Notes under the pieces: generated by a model | Databases searched by the model: none | What the model saw: only the letters and a program-made list of their open reading frames with translations | Told to the model about the DNA's origin: nothing | Translations under genes and position numbers: made by a program | Part shown: one piece after another, positions 8,798 through 16,661 of the stretch | How positions within the stretch are numbered: the stretch's first letter is position 1 | Layout: every line of letters starts with the position of its first letter | Assembly: GCA_017621845.1 (NCBI GenBank) | Contig: JAGASI010000025.1 | Span: 7,619-71,618 of the forward strand | From: Muribaculaceae bacterium | Lineage (GTDB): Bacteria > Bacteroidota > Bacteroidia > Bacteroidales > Muribaculaceae | Length of the DNA: 64,000 bases | Direction: 5' to 3'

Positions 8798-8927
8798 TCG
8801 ACAGCCTGAAAACTCCTTGTCTATCAAGAAATATTGCCACTCAGATTACCTCACAGACGAGTCAGTATTACCTTGACTCGCCTTTGTCTCGTCAACCCGG
8901 TTTTTTTTGAAGTACTGAATTTCATTT

Positions 8928-8958
8928 TTTGCTATGACAAAAAAAATGCCTACCTTTG
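8928..8958 (+). promoter_or_regulatory. Promoter for the metK leader
   Basis: TTTG (8928-8931), 19-nt spacer, TACCTTTG (8951-8958). Confidence 0.8.
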
Positions 8959-8962
8959 TGGC

Positions 8963-9148
8963 CCGTGGACAAATTTGGCTGCTTGCAACCACTCAAAAAA
9001 ATGCTAAAACTGCTCGATGTACAGTCTTTCGATACCGCTATGACACGAAAGACTGTCTCCGACCTCCAAACATAGAACACGCGTTTGAGAGCATTTTTTT
9101 CAGCAGTGGTCCGTCACGGTCTATCCAGTCGGTCCACTTCTTTTTTTT
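8963..9148 (+). promoter_or_regulatory. Candidate SAM-II-like riboswitch (aptamer ~8965-9014) with terminator-type expression platform
   Basis: P1 GTGG/CCAC (8965-68/8989-92), loop AUUUG..GCUUGCA, A-rich linker and UGCUAAAA tail match the SAM-II layout as I recall it. It starts at the predicted TSS of metK. A hairpin at 9105-9138 is followed by a U-tract. Confidence 0.72.
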
Positions 9149-9174
9149 GAATTAATAAAAACTCAATCCACACT

Positions 9175-10455
9175 ATGAACAGACTATTTACCTCTGAATC
9201 AGTATCAGAAGGTCACCCCGACAAAGTCGCCGACCAAATATCCGACGCCATACTTGACGAATTTCTGGCACGCGACCCGGCATCAAAAGTCGCATGCGAA
9301 ACCCTCGTCACCACCGGTCAGGTCATCATCGCCGGCGAGGTCAGCTCCAACGCTTACATCGACCTCCAGGGGGTTGCTCGACGCGTCATCGACCGCATCG
9401 GTTATAACCGTAGCGAACTCATGTTTGACGCCAACTCCTGTGGCATCCTCGCCGCTCTCCACGAGCAGAGCCACGACATCAACCGAGGTGTAGACCGTCA
9501 TGACCCAACTACACAGGGCGCCGGCGACCAAGGCATGATGTTCGGATATGCTTGTAACGAAACTCCCTTATATATACCCTTGTCTCTGGCCCTGAGCCAT
9601 GCACTGGTTGCCAAACTCACCGAGATACGCCGTGAAGGCAAAGTCATGACATACCTGCGTCCCGACGCCAAAAGCCAAGTAACTGTCGAATATGACGAAA
9701 AGGGCAAACTCGTAAGAGTCAACACCATCGTCGTGTCTACACAGCATGACGAATTTATTAAAGCCGAGAACCGCACGCAAGAAGAAGCCGATGAACTGAT
9801 GGTGACAACCATCAAAGATGACGTCAAAAAATATCTAATCCCACGCGTCAAAGCCTCAATGCCAACCGAGCTACAACGACTCCTTGACGACAACTACACT
9901 CTACATGTCAATCCAACCGGAAAATTTGTCATCGGTGGCCCTCACGGAGACACCGGCCTGACCGGTCGCAAAATCATCGTGGACACCTATGGTGGCCACG
10001 GTGCCCACGGTGGCGGTGCTTTCTCTGGCAAAGACCCCTCTAAGGTTGACCGCTCGGCTGCTTACGCCGCACGATATATCGCCAAGAATATCGTCGCCGC
10101 AGGTCTCGCCGACCGAGTCCTTGTCCAACTCGCTTATGCTATCGGCGTCGCCCAACCCGTCAGCATCAATGTTGATACCTACGGTACAGCTCGGGTAAAT
10201 CTATCGGATGCCGAAATCTCTGATAAAATCGCCAGCCTGTTTGACCTAACCCCTTACGGCATCGAAAAACATCTCAAGCTACGTCAACCCATATACGAGG
10301 AAACCGCTTCATACGGACACATGGGACGTACTCCACACACCATCACCAAGCACTTTGAACTCACACCCGGCGTCACCACGCCCGTTCAAGTAGAACTCTT
10401 CACATGGGAGAAAACCGACGCTGTCGACACAATCCGCTCGGCCTTCAACCTCTAA
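9175..10455 (+). CDS. metK: S-adenosylmethionine synthetase
   Basis: [56 protein letters not shown]. Confidence 0.98.
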
Positions 10456-13258: not shown

Positions 13259-13266
13259 TACTTTTG
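13259..13266 (+). promoter_or_regulatory. -7 box for the SRP RNA
   Basis: TACTTTTG ends 4 nt before the SRP 5' stem. Confidence 0.8.
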
Positions 13267-13270
13267 CCAC

Positions 13271-13372
13271 GGGTAAGTCCTACACGACCAGCTCCCTCCA
13301 ATCCCCCAGGTCCTGACCGAAGCAAGGGTCCGAGGTTGTAGCGGTGCGATGTAGTAAGCTTACCCTTTTTTT
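13271..13372 (+). ncRNA. ffs: Small bacterial SRP RNA (4.5S)
   Basis: Rod-like fold: gggtaag/cttaccc, ctaca/tgtag, cctc/gagg, ccc/ggg, with helix-8 symmetric-loop nucleotides CAGG...AGCA. It has its own promoter and a U7 tail. Confidence 0.85.
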
Positions 13373-16182: not shown

Positions 16183-16251
16183 GTGTTTTTCATGGTATTA
16201 GATTTAAGGTTAAGAAAGGTTACCCGTCGTGATGACGAGTAATTTTTTTTT
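16183..16251 (+). ncRNA. Compact Bacteroidales sRNA (~70 nt)
   Basis: Promoter, then GTGTTTTTCATGGTATTAGATTTAAGGTT, then terminator ttac-c-cgtc-gtgat-gacg-a-gtaa with T9. No ORF. The core is one I recognise from Bacteroidales intergenic sRNAs, but I cannot name the family with certainty. Confidence 0.7.
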
Positions 16252-16661
16252 GCACCTAATCCACCCTTCACAACTCATACGGGCGACAGAATTGCCTGTT
16301 GATTAAAATATGATGCTTAAGGACGGGACGGCCGAATTGTAATTAATTGTGATTAACTGCGTGTGTAAGGTCGGCAGGCCATCGTCACTAATGACAAAAC
16401 TAACAACAAAATCCCACCATTCTAAACATATAAACCACTAATTTTCAGTCCATTTTAGCCCATTTTACCCCCTACCCGAGCCACAACTGCGCATGTACCT
16501 CACCGTGGCGTCTCTACTGATAGCCCCGTATGCCGGTCGCCATATAGTGGTGTATACCAGCACATCCCCATCCCGTGCACCGCTTCGTAGTGCACCGGGG
16601 TTAACCATATAACAATATTTTGTATAATCTAATTCCCTAAAGCTCCTGATTAAAAGCCTGT

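Follow-up and report, generated by a model that had tools for sequence, protein, structure and literature searches.

A SAM-II long-loop aptamer followed by a candidate intrinsic terminator in the metK leader of a Muribaculaceae bacterium

The metK leader in the window (the whole 64,000-nucleotide stretch of Muribaculaceae bacterium DNA analysed here) contains an element that is, by family membership, a SAM-II long-loop aptamer (RF01726) and that presumably binds SAM. Taking the leader sequence together with its modelled folds, we consider it likely that this aptamer belongs to an OFF switch that controls metK through intrinsic transcription termination, with termination expected to depend on SAM. 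The leader runs in the order promoter box, SAM-II aptamer, spacer hairpin, antiterminator 3' strand, terminator candidate and metK (Table 1).

Table 1. Predicted elements of the leader and the gene that they precede (positions in the window).
Feature	Start	End	Strand	Description
Bacteroidota-type promoter	8928	8958	+	TTTG at 8928-8931, 19-nt spacer, TACCTTTG -7 box at 8951-8958; read from the sequence
SAM-II long-loop aptamer	8959	9017	+	Rfam RF01726, 54.9 bits, model positions 1-60 of 60
Spacer stem-loop	9012	9062	+	11-bp hairpin (9021-9031/9046-9056) on a short UCG/CGA base
Antiterminator 3' strand	9090	9110	+	AGCAUUUUUUU (9090-9100) with 8995-9005; AGUGGU (9105-9110) with 8988-8993
Intrinsic-terminator candidate	9102	9148	+	Stem 9102-9113/9130-9141, 16-nt loop, U8 at 9141-9148
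metK (S-adenosylmethionine synthetase), presumed regulated gene	9175	10455	+	All three Pfam S-AdoMet_synt domains, E = 3e-64 to 2.9e-40

A Rfam scan of the whole window matched the aptamer to RF01726 over the full model and above the curated gathering score of 44 bits (E = 8.8e-08), which bears out the initial annotation in its proposal of a SAM-II-type aptamer. That annotation had also regarded G-to-A changes as the mark of a variant; the alignment to the RF01726 consensus is near-identical base for base, AAAAAAAUGCUAAA included, and the element is therefore the normal Bacteroidota form. It had pointed to the Rfam models SAM_alpha and SAM-V, neither of which identified the element: the alpha-proteobacterial model SAM_alpha (RF00521) reached 14.7 bits (E = 0.64; curated gathering score, 36 bits), and SAM-V and the remaining SAM classes had no match in the window at E ≤ 10. 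No competing Rfam family was found at the aptamer site. With the long-loop group the aptamer shares, besides the full-length covariance-model match, the blocks GAUUUG, UUGCAACC, the A-run and UGCUAAA and a position just 3' of a UAnnUUUG promoter and 5' of a Met/SAM gene. It differs from that group in nothing essential, although the lineage of the window has C-U at the fifth P1 pair and no long loop insert. Classical SAM-II (RF00521) is the same riboswitch class with the same H-type pseudoknot logic, but L3 in the window is a pure A-run.

P1 is formed by GUGG (8965-8968) and CCAC (8989-8992), giving four pairs in the window, with a C-U mismatch as the outermost (fifth) pair and an A-A juxtaposition (8969/8988) at the inner end. 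These strands enclose AUUUGGC (8973-8979) and GCUUGCA (8981-8987, core UUGCA at 8983-8987), and are followed by the L3 A-run (8995-9001) and the pseudoknot 3' strand GCUAAA (9003-9008), which could pair with UUUGGC (8974-8979) to form P2 through six pairs, including one G-U. The pseudoknot positions were near-invariant in our leader set, and Infernal does not model pseudoknots. P1, in turn, covaried across 125 distinct leaders: GUGG/CCAC accounted for 114 leaders and GAGG/CCUC for 9, and the fifth pair was A-U (61 leaders), G-C (20), U-A (11), G-U (7), U-G (3) or C-G (1), so that four Watson-Crick types are represented at this position.

The TACCTTTG box (TAnnTTTG type) ends 6 nt before the start of P1, transcription is predicted to start at about 8963-8965, and given this spacing the aptamer should form the 5' end of the transcript. 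In the nearest relative (locus L192) a TAnnTTTG box likewise lies 6 nt 5' of P1, and TTTG directly precedes the aptamer in the remaining loci compared. The aptamer lies 158 nt upstream of metK. No Shine-Dalgarno sequence was seen upstream of the metK start codon (9175); Bacteroidota are a phylum that does not use such sequences. A 73-aa open reading frame at 8934-9155 was rejected as a gene, since its start precedes the predicted transcription start and it overlaps the riboswitch; the equivalent 69-aa frame in a strain copy (L191, 971-1180) is annotated as a gene in one public assembly and is almost certainly spurious. The gene upstream of the leader is polA, 3' of which a branched hairpin (GACGAG...CUCGUC, 8853-8909) is followed by AACCCGG and U8; this is likely the polA terminator, and the region is highly variable among strains sharing an identical MetK. 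Elsewhere in the window, Rfam matches were obtained for the Bacteroidales small SRP RNA (13264-13369, 103.7 bits) and the FopS sRNA family (16183-16252, 74.3 bits), both consistent with a Bacteroidales origin.

Downstream of the aptamer, several segments are complementary to aptamer strands: ACCACU (8988-8993) to AGUGGU (9105-9110), AAAAAAAUGCU (8995-9005) to AGCAUUUUUUU (9090-9100), and GUGGAC (8965-8970) to GUCCAC (9132-9137). An inverted-repeat search recovered CTCAAAAAAATGCT/AGCATTTTTTTCAG (8992-9005 with 9090-9103, 93%), ACCACT/AGTGGT, GTGGAC/GTCCAC and the perfect 11-bp hairpin. By direct reading and by this search, every string and complementarity quoted in the initial annotation was found in place, including the middle hairpin with all 11 of its pairs. 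GUGGAC/GUCCAC had been counted there as a separate observation; the match is present, but the 5' arm of the terminator mimics the P1 5' strand, so this match follows automatically and is not independent evidence.

The antiterminator would be a 17-bp interrupted helix that closes over the spacer hairpin, its strands 84 nt apart. Its 3' strand (9090-9110) includes the 5' arm of the terminator, and it pairs with 8988-9005, a stretch that runs from the P1 3' strand through the L3 A-run to UGCU. The segment containing this helix (8985-9112) folded at -35.9 kcal/mol (z = -4.3; 0 of 200 shuffles as good), and, relative to dinucleotide shuffles, the spacer hairpin (-13.9 kcal/mol, z = -3.7) and the terminator hairpin at 9102-9141 (-14.5 kcal/mol, z = -3.3) were also more stable. 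The core stem of the terminator (9105-9113/9130-9138) is followed by UUCUUUUUUUU, as described initially, but forms eight of nine pairs, the exception being a previously unmentioned U-U mismatch (9110/9133). This mismatch mirrors the A-A juxtaposition in the aptamer, so that full complementarity of each terminator arm to an aptamer strand is kept, and the terminator itself bears the cost. The hairpin at 9102-9141 escaped a consensus terminator scanner, because its 16-nt loop exceeds the scanner limit of 8 nt.

The unconstrained minimum-energy fold of the leader, taken from the start of P1, was the antiterminator (-49.6 kcal/mol), with 8988-9005 paired to 9090-9110 and 8965-8970 paired to 9132-9137. 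When the aptamer was masked, which mimics the ligand-locked state, the best fold (-37.4 kcal/mol) consisted of the spacer hairpin and the terminator. Together with the conservation in strains and relatives described below, these constrained and unconstrained folds support the earlier proposal that the 3' half of the aptamer is able to act as an antiterminator.

The aptamer segments that the antiterminator would use (8988-9005), which end in the first bases of the pseudoknot 3' strand, are those that the H-type pseudoknot of SAM-bound SAM-II sequesters. In the mechanism that we propose, transcription would begin at about 8963-8965 and produce the aptamer first. With SAM bound, P1 (8965-68/8989-92), L3 (8995-9001) and the pseudoknot (8974-79/9003-08) would be locked, leaving the strand at 9090-9110 free for its 3' part to pair with 9130-9138, and the resulting terminator hairpin and U8 would stop the transcript near 9145, before metK. 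Without SAM, 8988-9005 would pair with 9090-9110 in the interrupted helix over the spacer hairpin, and by holding the 5' arm of the terminator this antiterminator would allow RNA polymerase to read into metK. As the antiterminator strands lie so far apart, kinetics could favour other folds.

The MetK cluster of the window is rare, its nearest relative (L192) having 83% MetK identity. Six contigs encode an identical MetK, one of which matches the leader of the window throughout. In the five variant leaders all substitutions fall within 9014-9066, so that, homopolymer-length changes aside (the U-run at 9094-9100 is one U shorter in two variants), the aptamer, 9067-9113 and the terminator are free of substitutions. 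These strain substitutions disrupt 2 of the 11 pairs of the spacer hairpin, and relatives have a shorter hairpin (GCUCGG...CCGACC) at its position. In L192 the spacer is unalignable, yet UUUUUC-A-AGUGGUCC...GGUCCGC-U7 is kept and ...GAUUUUUCAAGUGGUCC...CCGGUCCGCUUUUUUU is retained. Both helices are kept in this relative, the free fold is again the antiterminator, and G-C, a compensatory double change, takes the place of A8995-U9100. The initial annotation had looked to covariation of P1 and the antiterminator among relatives, and the antiterminator is thus retained alongside the covarying P1. The L192 terminator has U-G in place of one U-A pair and still has the U-U mismatch; the terminator is conserved across L186-L192.

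It is scarcely credible, in our assessment, that the downstream complementarities arose by chance or from composition (an A-run facing a U-run) and that only the aptamer is functional. This explanation gains from a duplex-only shuffle test with the U-run preserved, which was weak for the sequence of the window, scored as strain copy L186 (7 of 100 shuffles reached the observed value, z ~ -1.5), and from the automatic nature of the GUGGAC/GUCCAC match. The duplex test (RNAduplex) discriminates poorly, however, because low-complexity A7/U7 pairing survives dinucleotide shuffling, and the stability of 8985-9112 relative to shuffles, the pattern of strain substitutions, the compensatory G-C pair of L192 and the surplus of anti-aptamer motifs in terminator 5' arms across leaders (see below) all argue against chance.

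A SAM-II aptamer could also be real while the hairpin and U-tract serve as a constitutive attenuator or RNA-stability element, with SAM acting on the initiation of translation or on mRNA decay. The terminator of the window is not a textbook one, given its long loop and the mismatch within its stem; in S. meliloti, the metA SAM-II leader has a downstream terminator that is not predicted to be SAM-controlled and appears ligand-independent (PMC9373788); and other Bacteroidota lineages carry the same aptamer with no terminator and seemingly with start-codon-proximal hairpins or anti-aptamer strands. We nevertheless judge this arrangement unlikely, since the strand that includes the terminator 5' arm is complementary to the ligand-locked 3' half of the aptamer and L192 keeps this complementarity with a compensatory change. 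Translational sequestering is further disfavoured by the stretch between the U-tract and the AUG (9149-9174), which is A-rich and predicted to be unpaired in either state, so that a sequestering helix is not visible here. Mainly Rho-dependent or dual control, in which SAM would alter the leader structure, Rho would terminate and the U-tract hairpin would be minor, seems very improbable. The 166 nt between GCUAAA of the aptamer core and the metK start codon are untranslated, as such control would favour, but no C-rich unstructured rut-like tract was evident at 9010-9100, which is largely paired, and the hairpin with its U8 tract is present and conserved. SAM-dependent intrinsic termination remains our preferred reading of the leader.

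Beyond L192, the leaders of relatives with 77-79% MetK identity (L194, L195, L196/197, L199, L200 and L203) all have a strong hairpin with a U-run downstream of the aptamer, and a terminator 5' arm with GUGG, the mimic of the P1 5' strand, occurs in most of them, L200 being the exception. Overall, a hairpin and U-run were found in all nine close-relative leaders. In L196, L199, L200 and L203 the lowest-energy fold retains the terminator even without ligand, which counts against the proposed switch. A BLAST search with the platform (9010-9175) found no match in any of the fetched loci. Its divergence is too rapid for conventional alignment-based covariation analysis, and its conservation was therefore assessed from the strain variants, from L192 and by folding each locus separately. 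Among these relatives, L195 has a 334-nt leader in which the 3' tail of the aptamer is repeated three times at ~880-960 (GCUAAAACCGCUCGGCG, GCUAAACCGCUUGGCG and UAAACCGCUCGGCG), and these repeats could be decoy or alternative pseudoknot strands. L196 and L197 (MetK P0029) have the aptamer and terminator and then an AT-rich insert of ~250 nt before metK, whereas L198, with the same MetK, lacks the aptamer, and the sequence upstream of metK is a different, GC-rich one, a difference that may reflect a rearrangement or a second promoter.

The aptamer was next to metK well beyond these relatives. Among the matches listed, 30 of 80 Bacteroidota loci had its core motif immediately before metK, in a set with MetK identity of ≤69%; closer relatives were obtained through a homologous-protein search, and all of those with enough upstream sequence had the aptamer upstream of metK. 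Scanning metagenomes with the 24-nt aptamer core yielded 105 further loci, and all 20 loci sampled were RF01726 matches above the cut-off. Of the 125 distinct metK leaders, 68 had, between aptamer and start codon, a hairpin that folds at -8 kcal/mol or below and abuts a U-run (4/29 from named genomes, 55/87 from metagenomes and the 9/9 from close relatives). An anti-aptamer motif (scored as GUGG, RGCAUU or AAGCAG) occurred in the terminator 5' arm, or in the 14 nt before it, in 47 of these 68 leaders, whereas reversing the segments left 1 of 68 and 200 shuffles averaged 10.4, with a maximum of 18; the sequences are related and the motifs were picked after inspection.

Terminators downstream of SAM-II aptamers have been described before. 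Corbino 2005 (PMC1273637) reported putative intrinsic terminators for many SAM-II representatives and listed a Bacteroides thetaiotaomicron example; both that study and Barrick and Breaker 2007 (PMC2258182) described many members followed by intrinsic terminators, as OFF switches. Weinberg et al. 2010 (PMC2864571) defined the SAM-II long loops from Bacteroidetes and marine sequences/metagenomes, with a UAnnUUUG promoter in the alignment notes. Scheuer 2022 (PMC9373788) restated the presence of SAM-II terminators and studied the terminator-type S. meliloti metZ SAM-II, and the main text of the TaRTLEt paper (PMC12121620) makes no mention of SAM-II or Bacteroides metK. The initial annotation had regarded a transcriptional SAM-II switch as a notable rewiring, a premise taken from the structural rather than the comparative literature; with terminators already stated in PMC1273637, PMC2258182 and PMC9373788, a terminator-coupled SAM-II is no rewiring. 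Novelty is unsupported, as SAM-II terminators were already known and Bacteroidetes members entered the catalogues in 2005 and 2010.

A close parallel in output is the S. meliloti metZ SAM-II, whose platform is likewise predicted to form a Rho-independent terminator on SAM binding, which would leave a short riboswitch RNA (PMC9373788). It comes from another phylum and precedes another gene, however, and its antiterminator uses only the pseudoknot strand, whereas that of the window would use the P1 3' strand and L3 and would span an 84-nt loop with an inserted hairpin. The Sargasso Sea metX SAM-II and SAM-V (PMC6061858) have the same ligand-binding architecture but sequester the Shine-Dalgarno sequence, unlike the window, which has a terminator and no Shine-Dalgarno sequence. 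Annotation of the leader as SAM-II long-loop with a terminator-type platform is of little import alone. In the literature cited here SAM-II termination has little direct experimental support, and none for Bacteroidota, which makes this compact leader a reasonable test construct.

A modest lead is that the same aptamer is found with quite different platforms across Bacteroidota, a diversity that could help to explain riboswitch control in a phylum not using Shine-Dalgarno sequences. We tentatively suggest, as a possibility for which we would claim less than even chances, that a single aptamer family has platforms split by lineage, with terminators in Muribaculaceae-like leaders as opposed to start-codon-proximal elements elsewhere. 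Under such a split, the terminator 5' arms of Muribaculaceae-like leaders would have been repeatedly rebuilt to pair with different aptamer segments, namely the P1 3' strand, L3/P2 (AAUGCU) or the loop (CUGCUU), while Bacteroides, Prevotella and Flavobacteriia appear mostly to be without terminators and to carry anti-aptamer strands and hairpins beside the start codon. The window, if this were true, would be one of a natural series in which riboswitch outputs were re-invented without Shine-Dalgarno sites.

Individual leaders from these other lineages had the following features. Prevotella-like metK leaders (L058, 1385-1500; L064, 1036-1222; L176; L149; and the L092/L093/L144 group) contain the aptamer and no terminator; a downstream strand (e.g. 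GUUUUUCCAC) could pair with the P1 5' strand or, alternatively, with UGGAAAAA right at the AUG, an arrangement that, from its sequence, looks like start-codon sequestration. Downstream of the aptamer, Flavobacteriia leaders (L022, L023, L034, L048, L067 and L072) have CUUUAGC and UGCAAUC, which are the complements of its GCUAAAG and GAUUGCA, and then a U-rich stretch; if a terminator formed here in the absence of SAM, its sign would be wrong for metK. No terminator was found in the Bacteroides/Mediterranea metK leaders L002, L004, L005 and L014. In the first three, the variable loop bases of the aptamer (UGAGUAG) have their complement in a CUACUCA-type strand further downstream, and in L014 the downstream strand CCCAAUUU matches its different loop (AUUUGGG), which suggests covariation between loop and strand; a long A/U-rich run then extends from the anti-loop strand to the AUG. 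Three MAGs labelled Staphylococcus, Christensenella and Verrucomicrobia (L009, L019 and L046) carry a Bacteroidota-type metK, the first two also with a SAM-II long-loop aptamer, and these bins are probably mislabelled or contaminated. Finally, the aptamer in L150 (2788-2879), which narrowly passes the cut-off at 45.2 bits, carries an insert in its A-rich L3, a 32-nt hairpin (GCAUGCGACG...CGACAUGC) that illustrates the name "long loop".
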